From the IMG/VR virus record IMGVR_UViG_2529292735_000007: 12,295 bases of DNA; one strand, given 5' to 3'. The stretch's first letter is position 1, and each line of letters begins with the position of its first letter. Under the pieces are notes generated by a model. That model ran no database searches. It worked only from the letters and a program-made list of their open reading frames with translations, and was not told the origin of the DNA. A program made the translations under genes and the position numbers. Below, piece after piece: positions 2,769 to 12,230 of this stretch. The DNA is from a virus (lineage: Duplodnaviria; Heunggongvirae; Uroviricota; Caudoviricetes).

Positions 2769-5591
2769 ATGACGGCAGAGTACATCAGGGACTGGCAACA
2801 ACCGCGCCACGCGGTGGGGCGTGAAGGAACGGGGATCCCCGCTCCTGAATCCGCGCTTTCCTCCTGGCTGGGTGCCTACCGGGTAGAGAACGAGCGCCGC
2901 CAGGAAATGGCTGATGCGGCGTTCTCCGCCACGCCGCTGGGCAACCTGATTAATAAAAGCCTGGACGCACAGAAAAAACAGGACAAAACCATCACACTGG
3001 CAGGAGACGCCAGAAAACAGGCACGCGGCGCGGTGGATGAAGCCATGGCCTCGCTGCGCCTGCTGCCGTCCTATCTGCGCGATCCGCTTATTCGCCACCT
3101 CTCCTTCCTGCGCAAAAAACAGGAAGCCGATCGCCGGAAAGGCAAAAAGAGCTGGCAGGCGGAACGCTATGCACGCGGAACCCTGCGCAAAATATTCGAA
3201 CGTCTGGACCGCACTGATCACCGCTGGCTGACACCGGATTATCGCTCCCTTGCTGGACGCGAACGCCTGGACGATTTGCTTTACCTGCCGCAGCTCAACA
3301 AACACCAGATACAGACGCTGGCCACCATGACGGCGGCGATGTTCAGCAGCACCTTCGAAAAACTCTGCGATGGCTTTGGCGCGACTGATGGCGAACTGAC
3401 CATGGATGTAACGCTGAAGGCGTATCAGATGCTGGCCCGCATGGCGTTACACCTGCACGCCATGCCTCCACATTATGACGCACTGACAACAGACAAAGAC
3501 CGGAGGAACGAACCGGACACAGAGCTGCTGCCGGGCGCAATCCTTCGCCTGACCTGTGCGGAATGGTGGAAACGCAAACTATGGCTGTTACGTTGCGAGT
3601 GGAGAGAAGAACAACTCCGCGCCGCCTGTCTGGTTTCCAGAAAAACATCGCCCTATCTGAGCCAGGACGCGTTAAGCGAGTTTCGCGCACAGCGCGAGAA
3701 AACACGCGATTTCCTGAAAAGTTTCATGCTGGAAAACGAAGACGGGTTCACGATTGATCTCGAGACAGTGTATTACGCGGGAGTAAGTAACCCGGTTCAC
3801 CGTAAGGCAGAAATGATGGCCACCATGAAGGGACTGGAACTTCTGGCCGAAGCCCGTGGCGACAGAGCGGTGTTTCTGACTGTCACCTGCCCGTCAAAAT
3901 ACCACGCAACAACGGAGAACGGTCATCCGAACCCCAAATGGAACGGGGCCACCATGCGCGACTCCAGCGATTACCTGGTTAACACGTTTTTTGCGGCGGT
4001 CCGCAAAAAACTGAACCGCGACGGCCTGCGCTGGTATGGCATCCGCACGGTGGAGCCTCACCATGACGGCACCGTGCACTGGCATATGATGGTCTTTGCT
4101 CATCCGGAAGAAATCGACACCATTGTGTCCCACGTCCGCGATATTGCCATTCAGGAAGACCGCCACGAGCTGGGCAATGATATTACTCCACGCTTTAAAG
4201 TGGAGTATGTCGACGGCTCAAAAGGCACACCAACCAGCTATATCGCGACCTACATCGGGAAAAACCTGGACAGCCGCGCCGTGGATGGCATCGACCCGAA
4301 AACGGGCAAACCACGCGTTGACCACGAAACCGGAAAATCAATGGCCGAGAGCGTGGAGCGCGCCATCGGTTGGGCACGCCTTCACCGGGTCCGCCAGTTC
4401 CAGTTCTTTGGCATCCCCTCCCGTCAGGTGTGGCGTGAACTCCGCCGCCTTGCCAGCCAGATGGCACGCAACCCGGAAGGCCCGCAACGGCTGAAGGATG
4501 ACGCAATGGATGCGGTACTCGCTGCCGCTGATGCCGGATGTTTTGCCACCTACATAGAGAAACAGGGCGGCGTACTTGTTCCACGCAAAGACTACCTGAT
4601 TCGCACCGCCTACGACCTCGCCGATGAGCTGAACGATTACGGCGAACAGAGTGTACAGATTTACGGGATCTGGTCACCACTCATCGGGGAATCCTCCCGT
4701 GTGTGCACGCACCCGGATAACTGGAAGCTGGTAAGACGTAAACCGGAACAGGAAGGCAGCGCCCACGAAAATGGTTTTGACCTTCAGGGCGGCCCTGCCG
4801 CCCCTTGGACTCGTGGCAATAACTGTCCCAGTGTACAGGAAACAGACAACAACGGGACAGAACAGCCGGAAGAACGGCCAGCACCGTGGCCGCAGCTTCC
4901 TGACGGCATTGAAGTGAATGAATGGATGCACTCACTGAAACGGCACGAACGCCGGGCGCTGATGCGTTCGCTGCGTGACAAACAGGCCAAAAACAGCAGC
5001 GATGAAATGCAGAACTGGACGCAGAGCCGCAAACAGCCGCGGCCTTTGCCTGATAACCACGAGTTACTCGCTAAAGAATGGCGGGAGTCTGCTGAATCTC
5101 TCGGCCTGCATATTGGTGAACAGCAGATGCAGCACCTGTTACGGGGCGGCAGTCTGTACGTTGACGGCAGCATCATTGCACCGCAGGGATTTGAAATTGT
5201 ACGCAAACCGGATACCCGCCCGGACAGCCGAATCACGCAGCTCTGGCAGCGCCTGAGCCGTAATCACGGCGTAAGCAGCACGGAGATCCGCCATAACCCG
5301 GTCGCCAGCTATCTGGAACAGCTGGGGGCATCAGACCCTGAAGCCGCCGCACGCCTGGCATCCACACTTCAGCAGGACCAGAACACCATGAAAACACCCG
5401 TTACCGTGCTTTCTGACATGCTGCGCGCCATCCGCGACGCAGAGCACGCACAGAGAATCAGTGAAACCACTGAACGCGCCCGCCGCAAAGCAGACCTGCT
5501 GCGGGGTGGCCTGACCAGTGGAAACAAAAAACAGACAGAAACGGGATTCACAAATCCCGTAAATGAGCAAAAAACGCGCCGCGATATATGA
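2769..5591 (+). CDS. A: rolling-circle replication initiator (HUH-type endonuclease, P2 gpA / phiX174 gpA superfamily I), 940 aa
   Basis: Translation contains EPHHDGTVHWHMMVFAHPEE (HWH at nt 4077..4085) and the paired active-site tyrosines in SYIATYIGKN (Tyr codons 4239..4241 and 4251..4253, Y-x3-Y spacing as in phiX174 gpA YVAKYV); position upstream of the Q-P-O head genes matches P2-like prophage order. Confidence 0.85.
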   Translation: MTAEYIRDWQQPRHAVGREGTGIPAPESALSSWLGAYRVENERRQEMADAAFSATPLGNLINKSLDAQKKQDKTITLAGDARKQARGAVDEAMASLRLLPSYLRDPLIRHLSFLRKKQEADRRKGKKSWQAERYARGTLRKIFERLDRTDHRWLTPDYRSLAGRERLDDLLYLPQLNKHQIQTLATMTAAMFSSTFEKLCDGFGATDGELTMDVTLKAYQMLARMALHLHAMPPHYDALTTDKDRRNEPDTELLPGAILRLTCAEWWKRKLWLLRCEWREEQLRAACLVSRKTSPYLSQDALSEFRAQREKTRDFLKSFMLENEDGFTIDLETVYYAGVSNPVHRKAEMMATMKGLELLAEARGDRAVFLTVTCPSKYHATTENGHPNPKWNGATMRDSSDYLVNTFFAAVRKKLNRDGLRWYGIRTVEPHHDGTVHWHMMVFAHPEEIDTIVSHVRDIAIQEDRHELGNDITPRFKVEYVDGSKGTPTSYIATYIGKNLDSRAVDGIDPKTGKPRVDHETGKSMAESVERAIGWARLHRVRQFQFFGIPSRQVWRELRRLASQMARNPEGPQRLKDDAMDAVLAAADAGCFATYIEKQGGVLVPRKDYLIRTAYDLADELNDYGEQSVQIYGIWSPLIGESSRVCTHPDNWKLVRRKPEQEGSAHENGFDLQGGPAAPWTRGNNCPSVQETDNNGTEQPEERPAPWPQLPDGIEVNEWMHSLKRHERRALMRSLRDKQAKNSSDEMQNWTQSRKQPRPLPDNHELLAKEWRESAESLGLHIGEQQMQHLLRGGSLYVDGSIIAPQGFEIVRKPDTRPDSRITQLWQRLSRNHGVSSTEIRHNPVASYLEQLGASDPEAAARLASTLQQDQNTMKTPVTVLSDMLRAIRDAEHAQRISETTERARRKADLLRGGLTSGNKKQTETGFTNPVNEQKTRRDI

Positions 5592-5636
5592 AGCGCGCAC
5601 AAAACAGGCAAAAACGGGATTTCAGAATCCCGTAAA
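5538..5636. promoter_or_regulatory. parC-like operator/centromere: two copies of a 20-bp palindrome upstream of parM
   Basis: AAACGGGATTcacaAATCCCGTAAA (palindrome 5541..5560) and AAACGGGATTtcagAATCCCGTAAA (palindrome 5614..5633), 73 bp apart centre to centre, flanked by CAAAAAAC-type A-tracts; the first copy lies inside the 3' end of the rep CDS. Confidence 0.45.
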
Positions 5637-5667
5637 CGATTAATTAATCAACATAAGGAAAAGCGAC

Positions 5668-6627
5668 ATGAAAATTTGTATCGACGACGGCTCCACCAAC
5701 ATCAAGCTGGCATGGACTGAGAACGGCGAACGCCGCAACGCCATCAGCCCGAACAGCTTCAAGTCGGAATGGTCTGCGCCGTTCGGTGGCACGCAGCCCG
5801 CGAACTACATGCTTGATGGCGTGCGCTATGGTTTTGATCCGGTCAGCGATCGCTTTGTCCAGACGACCGACACGCAATACCAGTACAGTGATGTGAATGT
5901 CATTGCCATTCATCACGCACTGGTCAAATCAGGCATCACGCCACAGGAGGTGGATGTGGTTGTCACCCTGCCACTGAGCGAGTATTTCGACACAAACGCA
6001 CAGCCGGACATGGCCAACATCAACCGCAAAAAAGCGAACGTTATGCGCCCGGTGGAGTACCAGAACGGCGAAGCATTCACTATCCGTAACGTGCGGGTTA
6101 TGCCTGAATCCATTCCGGCTGGCTTTAAAGCACTGGCTGACATGAGTCCGTTTGAATCCCTGCTGATTGTGGATTTAGGCGGAACCACGCTGGATGTGGC
6201 AAAGGTTCAGGGACAACTGGCAGGTATCAGCCAGGTGTTTTGCGATCCACACGTAGGCGTTTCCCTGATGGCCGATGCCGTACTGTCGGTGATGGCCACT
6301 AACGGTATGCGTACCAGTCACCACATCGCCAATACCATTATCGAACATCGCCATGATGAAGCCTGGTTGCGCCAACACATCCACAATGACGCGCATTACG
6401 CCAGCCTGATGGCGGTTATTCGTGAAAAGGAAGAAACACTGAAACAACGCGTGATCCGCGCGCTGGCGGGTTTTTCGGGTTACGGACGGGTGATGGTTGT
6501 CGGTGGTGGGGCGGAGATTGTGGCACCCGCTATCCGCGAAGCCTGCGGAGTTAATGCGACTTTCATCGCGGACGGGGTGCCACAGTTTGCTCTGGTTAAT
6601 GGGCTGTACGCAATGGACAAGGAGTAA
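5668..6627 (+). CDS. parM: ParM/StbA-family actin-like segregation ATPase (type II partition), 319 aa
   Basis: AAGGAAAA Shine-Dalgarno then ATG; translation matches plasmid R1 ParM as recalled from memory along its length (ICIDDGSTNIKLAW, ISPNSFK, QYSDVNVIAIHHAL, VMPESIPAGF, LLIVDLGGTTLDV, GVSL, VVGGGAE, LVNGLYA). Confidence 0.9.
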   Translation: MKICIDDGSTNIKLAWTENGERRNAISPNSFKSEWSAPFGGTQPANYMLDGVRYGFDPVSDRFVQTTDTQYQYSDVNVIAIHHALVKSGITPQEVDVVVTLPLSEYFDTNAQPDMANINRKKANVMRPVEYQNGEAFTIRNVRVMPESIPAGFKALADMSPFESLLIVDLGGTTLDVAKVQGQLAGISQVFCDPHVGVSLMADAVLSVMATNGMRTSHHIANTIIEHRHDEAWLRQHIHNDAHYASLMAVIREKEETLKQRVIRALAGFSGYGRVMVVGGGAEIVAPAIREACGVNATFIADGVPQFALVNGLYAMDKE

Positions 6628-6631
6628 ACCA

Positions 6632-6946
6632 ATGACGACACCAACCAGACGGATAAGTTTCTATCTGAAGCCCGCCGCCGTCAATAGTGAACGGAAGGCG
6701 TGTAATTACCTCGACAGCCTGCCAGCCTCTGAACGCAGCCGCGCGCAACGCGCGGCCTTTCTGGCCGGGCTGGCACTCATAAAACGCGATCCTGCATTTG
6801 CCTATTGGTTGGCCGAATGGCCGGAAGAAGGAGCTGCGCCAGCAAAGAATAATATTCAGAGTAAATATGCCAGCACACCTGCCACCGGAAGCAATCACAG
6901 CACTAGCGAGATAAGAAAGAACATTCAGTCATTTTTCCCGGAGTGA
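6632..6946 (+). CDS. parR: ParR-like ribbon-helix-helix centromere-binding protein / partition adaptor, about 105 aa
   Basis: ATG at 6632, 4 nt after the parM stop; N-terminus RRISFYLKPAAVNSERKACNYLDSLPASERSRAQRAAFLAGLALIKRDP resembles R1 ParR (RTIAFKLNPDVNQ...LDSIPQGERSRLNRAALTAGLALYRQDP, from memory); the track ORF 6497..6946 is the same frame extended upstream. Confidence 0.75.
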   Translation: MTTPTRRISFYLKPAAVNSERKACNYLDSLPASERSRAQRAAFLAGLALIKRDPAFAYWLAEWPEEGAAPAKNNIQSKYASTPATGSNHSTSEIRKNIQSFFPE

Positions 6947-6965: not shown

Positions 6966-7397
6966 ATGGCAACTATTCCCAAAAAATGGTTACAACGCAA
7001 AATCGCAGACCTTGAATCGTGTCGTGAAGACATCCCATTTGGCCTTGATGAAAACGATCACAATATGTTAATCGCACTGAAAATCGCACTCACATCGCTG
7101 GAAGCGAAACCTGTTGCATGGACTGATGATGAGGAACTGCGTGATGTCAAGCAGTATGGTTTCGGTGAGATATTTCAGTGTCCGCCAGATAAATACGCGG
7201 ACCCGCGCCGTGTTATCCCTATGTATCAAGAGCCGCCAGCGCCAGCAGTACCAGATGGGCTGGTTAGAGCGGTGCGTTTCTATGAACAGGTTAAGCGTGA
7301 AAATCCGCCAGCCGAAACCGGAGCATGGAAAGACGCTGTTGACTGGGTGCTCAAAGAGGCTTGCCAAGCTGTAAACATTGGCATCAAAGGAGAGTGA
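6966..7397 (+). CDS. hypothetical protein (143 aa), accessory-locus cargo gene 1
   Basis: ATG at 6966 with AGGAGAGG Shine-Dalgarno 7 nt upstream; contains the motif IALTSLEAKPVAW shared with the gene at 7690; proline-rich middle (YQEPPAPAVPDG). Confidence 0.6.
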   Translation: MATIPKKWLQRKIADLESCREDIPFGLDENDHNMLIALKIALTSLEAKPVAWTDDEELRDVKQYGFGEIFQCPPDKYADPRRVIPMYQEPPAPAVPDGLVRAVRFYEQVKRENPPAETGAWKDAVDWVLKEACQAVNIGIKGE

Positions 7398-7398
7398 T

Positions 7399-7686
7399 AT
7401 GGCAACTTTGCAGGAATTAATCGACCTGACGCCAGAACAGGAAAAAGCGTGGAATCGCCTTGTGAAGGCTGTAAAGGATTTCAGGGCAGCCGGAGGAAAG
7501 TTTTATAGCGTCCTGGACACGCTGAGCGCATACAACGGCGAGCACGTAGCCAGCATTGATAACGATAAGGGCTACCACACTGCAAGCGTTTATATGCCTA
7601 GCATTGATGCGCCAGGGCTAACCAGTTGGGCTGATGATTGGCACGGCATCACGCTGAAAGATGGCGTTGAAGTGGATGAGGACTAA
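7399..7686 (+). CDS. hypothetical protein (95 aa), accessory-locus cargo gene 2
   Basis: ATG at 7399 (1 nt after the previous stop) with AAAGGAGAG Shine-Dalgarno; acidic C-terminus; the track ORF 7378..7686 is the same frame with an alternative upstream start. Confidence 0.55.
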   Translation: MATLQELIDLTPEQEKAWNRLVKAVKDFRAAGGKFYSVLDTLSAYNGEHVASIDNDKGYHTASVYMPSIDAPGLTSWADDWHGITLKDGVEVDED

Positions 7687-7689
7687 CAC

Positions 7690-7950
7690 ATGACAACTTT
7701 CACCGACAAAGAACTGATTAAAGAAATCAAAGAGCGCATAGGTAGCCTGGACGTGAGAGACAATATTGAACGCCGTGCTTATGAAATTGCTCTGGTATCG
7801 CTGGAAGCAGAGCCAGTAGCATGGATGCATGTAAATAACGGCATCGGAATACCAGCAATAACAATGAGTAAAGAGGTTGCAGAGAGTTGGTTATCAAAAG
7901 GCTGGTATGTCCAACCCTTACATCTAGCCCAGCCTGCATCAAAGCTATAG
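7690..7950 (+). CDS. hypothetical protein (86 aa), accessory-locus cargo gene 3, paralogous motif to gene 1
   Basis: ATG at 7690 with GAGGA 7 nt upstream; contains IALVSLEAEPVAW (compare IALTSLEAKPVAW in 6966..7397); followed by a terminator hairpin. Confidence 0.55.
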   Translation: MTTFTDKELIKEIKERIGSLDVRDNIERRAYEIALVSLEAEPVAWMHVNNGIGIPAITMSKEVAESWLSKGWYVQPLHLAQPASKL

Positions 7951-7960
7951 AAATGAGCCA

Positions 7961-7983
7961 AAACGCCCTCTTCCAGGGCGTTT
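7961..7983 (+). terminator. rho-independent terminator closing the accessory operon
   Basis: AAACGCCCT-cttcc-AGGGCGTTT hairpin followed by ATTTCAA; begins 11 nt after the stop at 7950. Confidence 0.5.
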
Positions 7984-7990
7984 ATTTCAA

Positions 7991-8017
7991 TGCACAATAG
8001 TGCACAAATTTGCACAA
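7991..8017. repeat. three direct repeats of TGCACAA at exact 10-bp phasing
   Basis: TGCACAA at 7991, 8001 and 8011 (tgcacaaTAGtgcacaaATTtgcacaa), one helical turn apart, followed by a T7 run; looks like a phased protein-binding array. Confidence 0.6.
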
Positions 8018-8029
8018 TTTTTTTGAACG

Positions 8030-8441
8030 ACTTTTTGCCCTTCCGGCCCGCGGGGCGACTGGATCCGTCAAGGATCCGTGCGTGCACAAAAAAACGCGTT
8101 TTTTCTGCGCGCAGGTGACGGGGGAACAGCCCGCGTTTCAGGGGGTAAATAGCGTTCCCTTAACGATGTCGCAGCGACACGACAGAATGGCCGTATTTCT
8201 CACGCTGAGCGTGAAAAATACGTGAGGGCTTTTGATTTGATGGGGTGAAAGGTAAGGCCGTCAAAATCGCACTGAGGCGGCGAGAACATGCAGTCAGCGC
8301 AGTGGGATTGCGTAAGAGTCTGACCGTCGATGATGGCAATAAGCAGGAAAGCGTCGTGAAATTATCTGACTGATACAGGAGCTGGAGAGTCGGGGCATAA
8401 ATTTTTTATGCCCCGGCGAAGCAGCAGACAAGCGAAGCGCG
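8030..8441. other. non-coding region downstream of portal gene Q; expected location of cos and packaging signals
   Basis: No credible ORF; contains GGATCCGT direct repeats (about 8062..8079), the perfect palindrome AAAAAACGCGTTTTTT (8089..8104) and a GCGGGG-containing stretch (about 8047..8056) only loosely similar to the P2/186 cohesive-end sequence as recalled; the exact cos site could not be identified. Confidence 0.3.
8392..8414. terminator. palindromic hairpin about 28 nt downstream of the Q stop (possible bidirectional terminator)
   Basis: GGGGCATAAA-ttt-TTTATGCCCC perfect inverted repeat; lacks a clean external U-tract on either strand, so the terminator call is tentative. Confidence 0.35.
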
Positions 8442-9461
8442 TCAGGATGTGGGCTGGGTGTCTAACAGTGCGTAAGGGTTAAAGCGGATCACCTCTTCGC
8501 CAAGCCAGTCATTGATGTGCTTCATGGCCTCCATGACGGGCATCAGCTCGTTAATTGCGTAAACCCGCGCGGCCTTCTCCACATCACCAAGCGCACTTTT
8601 TTCGCCCGGCATCGCCCCCATCAGTTGCGGCGGAACGCGGTGCGCAGCCAGCACATCATCACGGGATGCCGCCTTAACATTCATGAACTCATCTTTTGCG
8701 GTGATCTGCTGGAACGGCAAAATTTGCACCCCCTCTTTGCCCCCGTTGGGCGCATGAATGAGCACGTTTTTAAACGCACCACCACCACGTGCACCCTGTA
8801 GCGTTTCTTTCAGGGAGTCCATGCTTTCGCGGTTTACCTGCGCTGCACCGATGTAGATGATGCACCCGGCGTGGGATCCGTTGTCGTAATACAGTTTTCT
8901 GAACATGTCCGCCGAATGAGACAGGCTGGCCGAGAGTAATGCGCCGAGATATTCCGGCATGCCGTAGATTTCCTGGTTAATGTCAGGATTCATCAGGTGG
9001 CACACTTTGCCAGGGCGAAACTGAAACGCGTCCTTGCCATCCTGCACATACCACCATGATTCAAGATCGCTTCCGCGTCGCATGTATTTCGCCAGGGCGT
9101 GCCGTAATTTAAGCGGTTCGCCGAGCATATTACTCCGAAGCTCAAGGAATGCGTTACCGAACACAAAACAGTCCAGCGCCAGCGCCGAGAAATCCTGCCG
9201 GGAAAGCAGCGGGTGCGGGATGTAGCAACCGAGTAATACATTGCGCTTAAAGTAAAGCGCAGACTGATGCCAGGACGTTTGCCGGGCAGCTCTTGCCAGA
9301 CCGTACCAGTCCACCGGGGTTTCATACCACCGCCCGTTATCAGCACAGTACATATTGTCCAGCAGGTCATGCCCGGTCAGGCGATAAGGCCCATCAAATG
9401 TGAATGCACTGAGCGACGATTCATTCCTGAGCGCATCAGCGAGATCAATGCGTGAACTCAT
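8442..9461 (-). CDS. Q: portal protein (P2 gpQ-like), about 339 aa
   Basis: Long minus-strand ORF directly downstream of the terminase large subunit gene and divergent from scaffold/capsid genes, as in P2 (Q-P leftward, O-N rightward); size matches gpQ; start placed at the first ATG (9461..9459, MSSRIDLADAL...), whereas the track ORF extends to 9572 via a non-ATG start. Confidence 0.8.
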   Translation of the reverse strand: MSSRIDLADALRNESSLSAFTFDGPYRLTGHDLLDNMYCADNGRWYETPVDWYGLARAARQTSWHQSALYFKRNVLLGCYIPHPLLSRQDFSALALDCFVFGNAFLELRSNMLGEPLKLRHALAKYMRRGSDLESWWYVQDGKDAFQFRPGKVCHLMNPDINQEIYGMPEYLGALLSASLSHSADMFRKLYYDNGSHAGCIIYIGAAQVNRESMDSLKETLQGARGGGAFKNVLIHAPNGGKEGVQILPFQQITAKDEFMNVKAASRDDVLAAHRVPPQLMGAMPGEKSALGDVEKAARVYAINELMPVMEAMKHINDWLGEEVIRFNPYALLDTQPTS

Positions 9462-9486
9462 GCGCACTTTTTTATTTTTCTGCTCA

Positions 9487-11240
9487 TCAGAACTCCATAA
9501 CCGTGAAACGCTCGTTTTCTCCTTCGCCGCCAATTGGTTCGTTAATGACAGCAAGCATGGTTGCCCACGCAAGGTCGCCGTGGCTGATCCCCCTCGCGCG
9601 GTCCGTTTCGTAAGTGATAAAGCCGCCCGGTGTTTTCACCTTACGCACGGCGTTAAAGGCTGCGACCAGTTCGCGTTCGGCGCGATCGTATTCCCACCGC
9701 CCGGCACGCATTATTTGCAGCATTTTCAGTACCAGCGACCGTTTTGATGACAGCGTGAAGGTGTACGGAATAGCAGCAGGGAAAAACCGTTTCACTATCT
9801 GATAAACAGCCTCCCGTTCCCGCCCGTCACATCAATGCCGATGTGTTCCACGTTGTAGCGACACGTGAACTCTTCAATGACTCTGGCCTGTTCTTCAAAC
9901 TCCAGCCCCTGAACGCGTCGCGTCTCCACCGTTCGAAAACGGCCACCAGGAACAGCCGGAGGGACCACCACGGACACCGCGCCGCTGTCGCCGTTGCCAC
10001 TGCTGCCGTTTGCGTCATACCCAATCCATACCGGGCGATTCCCCATCGGGCGGGGAGCAAAAGGTTTCCAGTCTTTCCAGTCGTCGTATCCGTCAACACC
10101 GCAGCCAATCAGGATATTCAGGTTAAATGCCGATTCCCCTTCGCGGACAAACTCACACATATAGAGATTGAGGAACTCGTCTTCGGTGTTTTCATCACGA
10201 ATTTCGTCGATATCGGTGTGTTTCCAGCCGTGATTAACCACATCTTCCAGCGTGACAATTTGCCGCCACGTCCGGTCAGGGCAGATAAGCCCGTTATGCA
10301 GCGTTTTCCAGTCCACAGAAAAACGCTGGCGTTTATGCGTGGCCTTTTCTCGTTCCAGCGGTCGCCGTTCCAGTAGGCGTATGCCTCGTGCGTTTCGGTG
10401 GATGGCGTGGAGAAGTAGGTGCGCCGCAGTCCGCTGAGGGTTGCCATAGCGCCAGCCACCTTGCGCAGTTCAGCAAAGCGACTAACCCAGAAAAATTCAT
10501 CAAAATAAAAATTGCCCGTATAGGACTGTGCCGACGCAGCAGAAGTGCCGAGAAAATGCAGCTCTGCGCCGTTTGAGAGGATGATTTTATCGCCCCCTTT
10601 CAGCTCCACATCAACTTCAGCCGCGGCCTTCTGAATAATGCTTTTAAACTGGAACGCCTGACGACGCGACGCAGACAAAAAAATCTGGTTACGCTGGTAA
10701 GGTTGCGCCACATCGTCACGCAGCGCCATCAGCAGTGCTTCCTGTGCAAAATACCAGGTCGCCCCAATCTGTCGGGATTTCAGGATCATCCTGTTACGTA
10801 TCCCGGCTTCCCTGCAAAGGGTCAGGGCGTCAAACCAGCCCCGCTGATGCCACTCCAGCCTGCTGATGATTTTTTCCCGCAGTGCGGCAATCTTGTTCCG
10901 GCGTGAAATGATTTTTTAAGTTTTTTTCGCCCCGGCTTTTCTTTCCTGTGGCCGTCGCATCCGGCTGGTCATTATGCAGTTTTTTAAGCTGCCGGGTCAG
11001 CAGGTCTATTTCCTTGAAGTCACCACCTGTTTTATTCTGTTTTTCAGTAAGCTGGATGAGGCGCGCATCGATGGACTGCGTGACACGCTGCACGGGTGGC
11101 GTTTCATCCCACTGATCGCGTTTTTTCCACGCATAAATCGTGTTCGGGTTTATTCCCATCAGACGTGATATTTCTGCGGGCGGATAACCCTGCCAGTAAA
11201 GTTGTCGCGCACGCTGGCGCACAAAAGCGTCCTGAATCAT
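9487..11240 (-). pseudogene. P: terminase large subunit (P2 gpP-like) split into four reading frames by at least three frameshifts
   Basis: Four consecutive minus-strand ORFs (10830..11240, 10118..10789, 9795..10316, 9487..9795) together span about 588 codons; the N-terminal HTH (YWQGYPPAEISRLMGINPNTIYAWKK), ATPase-like core (LSNGAELHFLGTSAASAQSYTGNFYFDEFFW) and nuclease-like IGIDVTGG sit in different frames; junctions lie at homopolymer runs. Confidence 0.75.
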
Positions 11241-11401
11241 TGCTCCCCCTGAGTAATTACAGGAAGATTACCCGCGCGCGAAACCGTTCTCCTTAACCCC
11301 CTGTTCTGGCTGTTTTCTTACAACAAAAGCCCTTTGTATCAGCCTGTTACGCTTTGCCATCATGACTGAAGAACCAGTCAGAGGGGCAAAAACTATGGCT
11401 A

Positions 11402-12230
11402 ATGAAAAAGACATCCCGCAAAAAGTTTCGCGTGGCTGTCTCCGGATCAACTGTTGATGGACGCGAAATCAGCCCGGTACATCTGCGTGAAGCCGCCGAG
11501 AACTTCAACCCGGATGTTTACGCTGCCCGCGTGAACGTTGAGCACTATCTCTCGCCATGCCCGTCAAGCGAATTTTCCGCAATGGGCGATGTCACCGCAC
11601 TGAGTACGGAAGATATTACGGAAGGCCCGCTGGCCGGACGTACTGCGCTGTATGCAGAAATCGAACCGACCGAGCGCATGAAGCAGCTTGTCGCTGACGG
11701 CAAGAAAATCTATTCCAGTATCGAACTGCACCCGCAGTTCTCCGTTAACGGGCGCGCCTATCTGGTCGGGCTGGCGATGACCGACACCCGGCAAGCCTCG
11801 GGCACTGAGCGCCTGAAATTCACGGCACAGCAACGTCAGGCGGTGATGACGTTCAACAGTGTCCAGGGTGAGGCACCGCTTATTTCCGAAGCCATCGAGT
11901 CTGAAATCATCGAAATGGCAGAACAACGCCAGGAAGAAGGCACCCAGTGGTTTAACCGCGTAATGGGGATTATTGGTCGTGGCCGCAAAAGCGGATGACG
12001 CCAGTTTCTCCCGTATTCAGGAAGCGGTGGAAGGCGTCGCAACGTCACAGGCCGACATTATCGACCGTTTTAATGTGCTGGAAACCCGCCATCAGCAGGA
12101 CCGCCAGAAAATCACGTCACTGACCACAGAGCTGGCAGCACTGAAGGAAAAACTGCGCACGCAGGACGGCGATCCGCAGAACCGCTTCACCGCAACAGGT
12201 GCAGCCTCCGACCAGCTGGCTGACTTCTGA
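11402..12230 (+). pseudogene. O: capsid scaffold protein (P2 gpO-like), interrupted by a frameshift near 11990
   Basis: N-terminus MKKTSRKKFRVAVSGSTVDGREIS and internal YLVGLAMTD resemble P2 gpO as recalled (…FRIGVEGDTCDGRVIS…, …YLVGLAVTD…); the frame stops at 11998 and the homologous C-terminal part (AAKADDASFSRIQEAV…) continues in another frame to 12230; an ATG at 11395 with better Shine-Dalgarno spacing (GAGGGG) is out of frame, suggesting a second indel at the start. Confidence 0.7.

Follow-up and report, generated by a model that had tools for sequence, protein, structure and literature searches.

Genes and features at the locus

The window (the whole stretch of 12,295 nt of DNA that was analyzed) is from a P88-like prophage of the genus Xuanwuvirus in the P2-like family Peduoviridae, and its identity to Citrobacter phage Shae_phiSM, vB_EcoM-569R5 and P88 was 96-99%. 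A gpA-like replication gene (2769-5591) is followed by ParM (5668-6627) with a ParR-like gene beside it, about 1 kb to the left of the repeats described below. We note that this ParM/ParR-like partition cassette (5592-6946), found in 40 of 73 related loci, sits inside the cos-adjacent hotspot of an integrating P2-like phage. No parC-like iterons were visible upstream of parM in the window, so that the centromere of the cassette was not located. Further to the right, lambdoid-type cargo ORFs reach position 7950. Those at 7264-7950 (DUF551-like and Ea22-like) shared 94-97% identity with lambdoid and Stx-converting phage genes, indicating that modules are exchanged between P2-like and lambdoid prophages at the hotspot. 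The rightward cargo operon is closed by an intrinsic terminator on the plus strand (7961-7983), which has a 9-bp perfect stem (AAACGCCCT/AGGGCGTTT) and a T-rich tail (RNA fold -13.6 kcal/mol, z -3.8). With this terminator the cargo-specific sequence ends; the conserved cos module does not include it.

The heptamer TGCACAA follows on the plus strand at 7991-7997 (R3, the distal copy), 8001-8007 (R2) and 8011-8017 (R1), and R1 runs directly into a tract of seven T residues (8018-8024). The search of the window confirmed the three exact heptamers at 10-bp spacing that an earlier note had read from the same DNA. One more plus-strand copy (R0) is present at 8083-8089, and there is none elsewhere in the window. 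The heptamer is not enriched in number, with 4 copies against 3.27 expected in the window, but any heptamer repeated three times at a fixed spacing of 9-12 bp occurred in 0 of 2000 first-order Markov simulations of the window. It is therefore the arrangement of the array, not the copy number, that is unusual. A check for further TGCACAA arrays found none besides in the window. In the complete genome of P88, the heptamer was clustered at the array site only, and the 5 other copies were scattered singly, in about the number expected by chance.

To the right of the array, about 430 bp of non-coding DNA extend to the portal gene (P2 gpQ homologue; 8445-9482, minus strand; tblastn 98.8% identity to the P88 portal), the first conserved gene right of cos. 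Of 94 loci, 93 had a minus-strand portal gene to the right of cosN, at a distance of 218-955 bp. The large terminase gene comes after the portal gene, and the window stops short of the small terminase gene. The site of the array in the window is the gpA-gpQ cargo hotspot adjoining cos that was described by Rousset et al. (PMC9122126). Anti-phage defence genes have a major reservoir in such hotspots beside the cos of P2-like prophages and P4-like satellites.

We also note that the large terminase gene (9490-11240, minus strand) is broken over four reading frames and the scaffold gene gpO (11405-12227, plus strand) over two. The breaks are 1-nt indels relative to P88 at about 9811, 10345, 10893 and 11987, mostly in short homopolymer runs, and the protein identity of each fragment to P88 remains at 92-97%. 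The split genes reflect either homopolymer sequencing error or a non-inducible prophage in early decay.

The cosN homologue, a 19-nt cohesive-end sequence (GGTGACGGGGGAACAGCCC), was placed by homology at 8114-8132 on the plus strand, from which we infer the cut sites. The sequence resembles cosN of P2 (GGCGAGGCGGGGAAAGCAC), SEN4 (ggcgaggcgggggaacgag) and phiRSA1 (GGTGAGGCGGGGTCCAAC), and was also compared with that of 186. GCGCGCA precedes cosN in the window, SEN4 and phiRSA1, and the location of cosN relative to R0 and the portal gene is the same in relatives. With cosN at this position, R3, R2, R1 and R0 start at -123, -113, -103 and -31, respectively, and the earlier placement of the array between the terminator and the cos region turns out to be right.

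R0 continues into an A run (TGCACAAAAAAA, 8083-8094, plus strand) and is the counterpart of the P2/P4 sequence TGCATTAAAA, which is found at -29 in P2, 186 and P4 and opens the 55-bp P2/P4 core. The distance from R0 to cosN was 29-32 bp in the P88-type set. A perfect palindrome (AAAAAACG/CGTTTTTT, 8089-8104), enclosed by a longer imperfect inverted repeat (8079-8093/8099-8113), lies between R0 and cosN of the window, whereas P2, 186 and P4 have another short dyad (CCGCCC..GGGCGG) in its place.

A GC-rich block at 8037-8059, where the record of P88_4B11 starts and whose reverse complement loosely resembles P2 cos, was also tried as cosN. It was dropped because type-C relatives, SEN4 and phiRSA1 place the homologue at 8114-8132. 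P88_4B11 (NC_049391; L002 1-120, L004 1440-1501) is the only linear record of the genus. It starts at the equivalent of window position 8036, between the array and the GC-rich spacer, mismatching the predicted cosN nick, and where cosN as predicted has its right edge (equivalent of window 8114-8137) the record is short of 5 nt (CCCGC). The start may be arbitrary and the CCCGC deletion an assembly artefact at the physical ends, which would support cosN at 8114-8132. If the start is a true end, the geometry proposed here would need revision.

A conserved P2/P4 cos core of 55 bp with 19-nt cohesive ends goes back to Ziermann and Calendar (1990), in the form in which that work is cited in PMC5694545 and PMC9594776. 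The contiguous homology of P2 and P4 begins with the proximal repeat copy (TGCATTAAAACC in P2, 186 and P4) and, by our count, extends from -29 to about +26; it corresponds to the cited core. Since the 55-bp core starts at R0, the distal array is outside the part that is usually called the cos site.

Positional conservation of the repeats

Loci found with the array pattern itself are unsuitable for judging the conservation of the heptamers, because the reasoning would be circular. The array-pattern scan of IMG/VR was therefore left out of the conservation measure, and scans anchored in cosN were used instead. The P88-type set was collected from IMG/VR with a 24-nt string covering cosN only, and the P2-type set with the 19-mer of P2 cosN only, which gave 103 unique upstream sequences.

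All of the 122 cosN-anchored IMG/VR loci with enough flank had the three-heptamer array at -123 (within 1 bp). In 65 unique sequences, the mean entropy was 0.12 bit for the heptamers, 0.67 bit for the 3-nt spacers and 1.76 bit, a value typical of random sequence, for the 10 nt to the left. R1 was the most conserved copy (TGCACAA in 62 of 65 unique sequences), R2 had the exact heptamer in 59 of 65 with the cosN anchor, and R3 was the most variable (44 TGCACAA, 10 CGCACAA and 6 TGCACGA of 65). Occupancy in the 103 unique P2-type sequences was 102 for R0, 97 for R1, 84 for R2 and 73 for R3, against a background of 0.003 per position, and the 102 R0 copies were all at -29 (within 1 bp).

The same layout was found well beyond the P88-like phages. 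The window and phiT5282H have repeats (TGCAC) starting at -123, -113, -103 and -31, and TGCAT is found at -123, -111, -101 and -29 in P2, at -124, -111, -101 and -29 in both 186 and the satellite P4, and at -120, -111, -101 and -29 in PSP3. The copies at -111 and -101 in P2, 186 and P4 are the counterparts of R2 and R1, respectively. Among phages of Klebsiella, ST11-VIM1phi8.4 has five copies from -143 to -101 and two more at -35 and -29, Kp4873-2 has copies at -121, -111, -101, -38 and -29, and Kp4846-1 at -122, -112, -102, -35 and -31. The positions are -134, -121, -111, -101, -37 and -29 in Salmonella SEN4, -129, -110, -100, -35 and -29 in Ralstonia RSA1, and, in the form YGCAG, -109, -99, -83, -37 and -28 in Pseudomonas phiCTX. 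The comparison with cos-proximal sequences of P2-like phages thus found the position kept from P88-like phages to P2, 186, PSP3, P4, the Klebsiella and Salmonella phages, RSA1 and phiCTX. The reading of the heptamers as a cos-associated protein-binding array, as first put forward in the earlier note, is supported to the extent that their position relative to cosN is kept in every relative examined, which is evidence from sequence comparison.

The conserved cos module has its left limit exactly at the first base of R3. Typically, matches found by BLAST start at 7991, in phage records as well as in the 1100 matching genomes among 5426 complete E. coli genomes, and the sequence to the left of this position is wholly different between related loci; its randomness is explained by cargo that can be swapped. 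The exact cos module of the window was present in these 1100 of 5426 genomes, and in none of the 12 E. coli genome matches listed was it annotated. The coincidence of the array with the exact edge of the gpA-gpQ hotspot (Rousset et al.), where the matches in the 1100 E. coli genomes typically start, would also be expected if the array had no function and were conserved as a homology arm that resolves cargo-swap recombination beside cos. We nevertheless regard this explanation as very improbable, as under mere hitch-hiking the heptamers would not be five times better conserved than the 3-nt stretches that separate them, their positions would not be held through the changes from TGCACAA to TGCAT and YGCAG across genera, and a distance of 72 bp would not be fixed over a freely diverging spacer.

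Of 81 unique P88-type sequences, 79 had 72 bp from the start of R1 to the start of R0 and 2 had 71 bp, and the distance was also 71-72 bp in every other genus examined. Ungapped identity between loci of the spacer that separates R1 from R0 had a median of 52% and went down to 23%, a chance level. The fixed length of a divergent spacer indicates that its length is under selection and its sequence is not, which fits two sets of sites being held by one protein assembly. In the window, the spacer contains a GC-rich dyad region (8037-8077) of variable sequence and fixed length, with GCCC..GGGC followed by GGATCC-N5-GGATCC at 8061-8077. Other lineages have different dyads at the equivalent place, for example GCGCCAGAACTGGCGC or CCGCCctgtGGCGG. 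More generally, dyads and palindromes in the region equivalent to 8037-8113 (window, L003, L010, L057, L058, L126, P4 and 186) are lineage-specific in sequence and kept in position, examples being GGATCC-N5-GGATCC, GCGCCAGAACTGGCGC, CCGCGCC..GGCGCGG and AAAAAACGCGTTTTTT. The GC-rich dyads may provide a second binding site or influence the flexibility of the DNA.

Conservation of the region is not due to a protein-coding sequence. A 42-aa ORF (7990-8118) overlaps the array, but it is not conserved, and its ATG at 7990 is missing in most relatives. The coding reading was rejected because conservation in the array region follows a period of 10 nt and not 3 nt. In P88, the small hypothetical ORFs SF19_gp21 (10994-11137) and SF19_gp22 are annotated over R0, cosN and the spacer between cos and the portal gene; gp21, which runs across cosN, is likewise not conserved. 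SF19_gp21, SF19_gp22 and the ORF at 7990-8118 are probably spurious, and one of them covers the cohesive-end cut site.

We also considered that the array, as a GTGCAC..TGCAC hairpin with the T7 tract behind it, might be a terminator or insulator that shields cos from cargo read-through. A consensus scan indeed flagged 8000-8015 with the T run, and the T7 tract has near-zero entropy and is kept throughout the P88/Novemvirus/Reginaelenavirus group. However, one match in such a scan is what shuffled sequences give on average (mean 1.0), the array folds no better than shuffles (z -1.2), and a stable conserved hairpin with a U run, as intrinsic terminators have, was not found at the array. Conservation is concentrated on the heptamers and compensatory changes in a stem are absent, P2, 186 and P4 retain the repeats although the T run is missing, and a strong terminator is already in place at 7961-7983. 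Terminator or insulator function of the array is therefore barely credible.

Possible readers of the repeats

If the repeats are binding sites, the genes on either side of them offer different candidates for the protein that reads them. The earlier note had listed an operator for cargo genes and a site for the ParR-like protein among the options. ParM (5668-6627) and the ParR-like gene are about 1 kb to the left, and no iteron array was visible upstream of parM. The array might have been the centromere or an operator of the cassette, or an operator for the cargo genes. Both options had to be rejected. ParM and ParR were both absent, with gpA present, from 33 of the 73 array loci with at least 4 kb on the left, and P2, 186, P4, RSA1 and phiCTX share the layout without ParMR, which argues against a ParR site. 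Cargo to the left of the array is unrelated from locus to locus, so that the array is not an operator for it, and no sigma-70-like promoter was found in 7600-8500. We assign a negligible probability to a role of the array as centromere or operator of the cassette or as operator of the cargo genes. As a separate observation, the annotated minus-strand transcript starts of old-tin in P2 (L006 1425-1470; -152 to -105 from cos) put a -35 element (TTGAAT) over R3 (TGCATTCAA), showing that cargo promoters can overlap the outer repeat of the array.

Satellites provide a further argument. P4-like satellites have no genes in common with their helper and rely on the helper terminase for packaging. In the P2-type set, 22 loci had no portal gene right of cos, and a homologue of P4 Psu was located immediately left in 16 of them. 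The exact -124/-111/-101/-29 pattern was present in 14 of the 22 portal-less loci, and five further ones listed had the pattern plus extra copies. Retention of the array by satellites that lack helper genes argues for reading by the packaging machinery. Portal-less satellite-like loci made up 22 of 113 P2-type cos loci with enough flank and 1 of 94 P88-type loci (samples compared: IMG/VR L007-L166 versus L167-L286), a hint that cos in its TGCAT form is the one mostly used by P4-like satellites. The single P88-type locus (L126, IMGVR_UViG_2734482779_000006), a different element that encodes a capsid protein, has an array on the minus strand at about 4172-4199, with R0 and cosN identical to the P88 type, and no portal or terminase gene was found within 4.2 kb. 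Beside cos it carries a 236-aa ORF of unknown kind, a P2-family major capsid gene and a MazF toxin gene; an 82-aa ORF adjoining MazF is a candidate antitoxin. L126 could represent a satellite of P88-like helpers with a capsid gene, or else a prophage that has undergone deletion.

The distribution of repeat variants points in the same direction. P88, T5282H and Kp4873-2, whose small terminases are 55-66% and large terminases 68-75% identical to one another, all have TGCACAA, in Kp4873-2 despite a P2-like cosN. SEN4, which is intermediate in both terminase proteins, has mixed repeats. P2, whose small terminase is 37-39% identical to the others, uses TGCAT, although P2 and P88-like phages both infect E. 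coli. The repeat variant thus tracks the terminase lineage and not the host or cosN, which favours a phage-encoded reader, but common descent of the head module as a whole would give the same association, and the association does not discriminate between the small subunit, the large subunit and other phage proteins. In the small terminases of P88 and P2, the only domain matched was PF05944 (Phage_term_smal), and the small terminase would be the natural candidate for reading the repeats.

Because the TGCA core is common to phages of Escherichia, Klebsiella, Salmonella, Ralstonia and Pseudomonas, a conserved host protein is conceivable as the reader. An architectural or DNA-bending protein of this kind could bind the repeats and aid terminase, as IHF does at the lambda I1 site. 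The fixed 72-bp gap, suggestive of DNA bending, is in line with this idea, and retention of the repeats by P4, which encodes no terminase, would be equally expected for a host factor. Still, we consider host-protein binding unlikely. The variant differs between phages of the same host (TGCAT in P2 and TGCACAA in P88-like phages of E. coli) and is constant across hosts within one terminase lineage. IHF consensus sites with at most 1 mismatch are absent from 7985-8135, and a search with the consensus WATCAANNNNTTR at the same tolerance gave no match in 7905-11336. No E. coli nucleoid protein is known to recognize direct TGCAY repeats.

Taken together, we propose that the array is probably the distal recognition element of an extended P2-family cos that would be bound by terminase, most likely by a small subunit of the gpM type. 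The earlier suggestion of a cosB-like site for the small terminase subunit is supported by the comparison, with binding and the identity of the binder predicted from sequence. The full signal would comprise R3, R2 and R1 at -123, -113 and -103, the 72-bp R1-R0 distance, R0 with its A run at -31, the palindrome and cosN. An oligomer of terminase, most likely of the gpM-type small subunit (PF05944), would bind the four like-oriented TGCAY sites. R3, R2 and R1, one helical turn apart, would present one face of the DNA, and the invariant gap of 71-72 bp (about 7 turns) would allow bending or wrapping of the spacer, by which R0 would come into contact with the protein assembly on the other three. 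The large subunit would thereby be placed over cosN, about 30 bp from R0, where it would make staggered nicks on the circular monomer. TGCACAA would be the form read in the P88/Novemvirus/Reginaelenavirus terminase lineage, and TGCAT the form of P2, 186 and P4. As the cited core starts at R0, packaging may do without the distal array or be no more than stimulated by it.

The array could also belong to the packaging signal and act at the end of packaging, in the final cut or the release of terminase, rather than in initial recognition. In lambda, the equivalent side carries cosQ and not cosB. The array and the head genes are on opposite sides of cosN, and in the P2 map as drawn the array side forms the right end of the mature DNA. 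P2 packages circular monomers, so that one cos has to do for both the start and the finish. However, the 55-bp core is asymmetric, with about 29 bp on the array side and only about 7 bp on the other, suggesting that the main recognition contacts are on the array side. Moreover, cosQ of lambda is a single 7-bp element, to which four phased repeats distributed over 100 bp bear less resemblance than to a platform for assembly. Accordingly, we think a cosQ-like role decidedly improbable.

Recognition of the array by terminase would have consequences beyond the window. The TGCAY triplet, the 71-72 bp and R0 might together be an overlooked family-wide packaging component that sets specificity, with TGCAT and TGCACAA read by diverged small terminases, an idea that we put forward tentatively and regard as somewhat doubtful. 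If true, the repeat variants would define which satellites each helper can mobilize; P2-like prophages and P4-like satellites are among the commonest enterobacterial mobile elements. Knowing the true extent of the signal would fix where cargo can and cannot insert and would explain the sharp hotspot boundaries. It would be a sequence handle for predicting helper-satellite packaging pairs, and would be useful for engineering of P2/P4 cosmids and phage-like particles. In such engineering, packaging efficiency is reported to vary with the flanks of the 55-bp core, which are poorly defined. The 72-bp spacing is also a geometric prediction for a small-terminase family, PF05944, for which we found no solved structure of a homologue. 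In the open literature on P2/P4 cos that was reached, we found the 55-bp core only and no description of the distal repeats or the fixed 72-bp spacing. Literature searches on TGCAT with cos, on the direction of P2 packaging and on DNA binding by gpM returned nothing relevant.

Comparison with known packaging and partition sites

The parC site of the ParMRC system of plasmid R1 resembles the array in having short direct repeats about one helical turn apart near parM and parR. However, the iterons of parC are 11 bp long and form two sets of five upstream of parM, and parC is always accompanied by ParR. The array of the window has 3+1 copies, about 1 kb of cargo lies between it and parR, and many phages without ParMR have the array, so that the co-occurrence of iterons with adjoining parM/parR that marks parC was not found.

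With cosB of lambda, the array shares several short repeats flanking cosN and, by analogy, possibly the anchoring of small terminase and bending of DNA. The likeness would be functional only, since the array is on the other side of cosN, in a different geometry and with a different small-terminase family. The gpNu1-binding R elements of lambda (R3, R2 and R1) are 16 bp long, of mixed orientation and not spaced at 10 bp; they lie on the terminase-gene side of cosN, at the end which enters the head first, and an IHF site (I1) is needed. The repeats of the window are 5-7 bp long, all direct, and on the opposite side, with no IHF consensus among them. To the right of cosN, inspection by eye of 8133-8440 revealed no repeats, and the small terminases of P88 and P2 are of the PF05944 and not the gpNu1 family.

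The pac site of the Bacillus phage SPP1 has phased short boxes (pacL and pacR) that are bound by the oligomeric small terminase G1P, with bending or looping of the DNA between the separated boxes. SPP1 is a headful (pac) system, and its boxes bracket the cut site. In the window, by contrast, the four repeats are on one side of a cos-type staggered cut, and the proteins are unrelated.

The closest match is with the cos sites of P2, 186 and P4. As in these, a homologous, GC-rich 19-nt cosN is located between the gpA-side hotspot region and the minus-strand portal gene, and a proximal TGCAY with an A run is present about 29-31 bp to its left (around -30). Three like-oriented distal TGCAY repeats are separated from the proximal copy by 71-72 bp (72 bp from R1 to R0), a feature of P2-family cos that was defined in the present analysis and not taken from the literature. 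The window differs from P2, 186 and P4 in the repeat itself (TGCACAA, with 7 identical bases, instead of TGCAT), in the spacing of the distal copies (10/10 bp instead of 12-13/10 bp), in the T7 tract after R1, in the cosN sequence GGTGACGGGGGAACAGCCC and in the spacer dyads. The array is thus a TGCACAA lineage variant of a family-wide cos architecture that is unannotated in the records examined.
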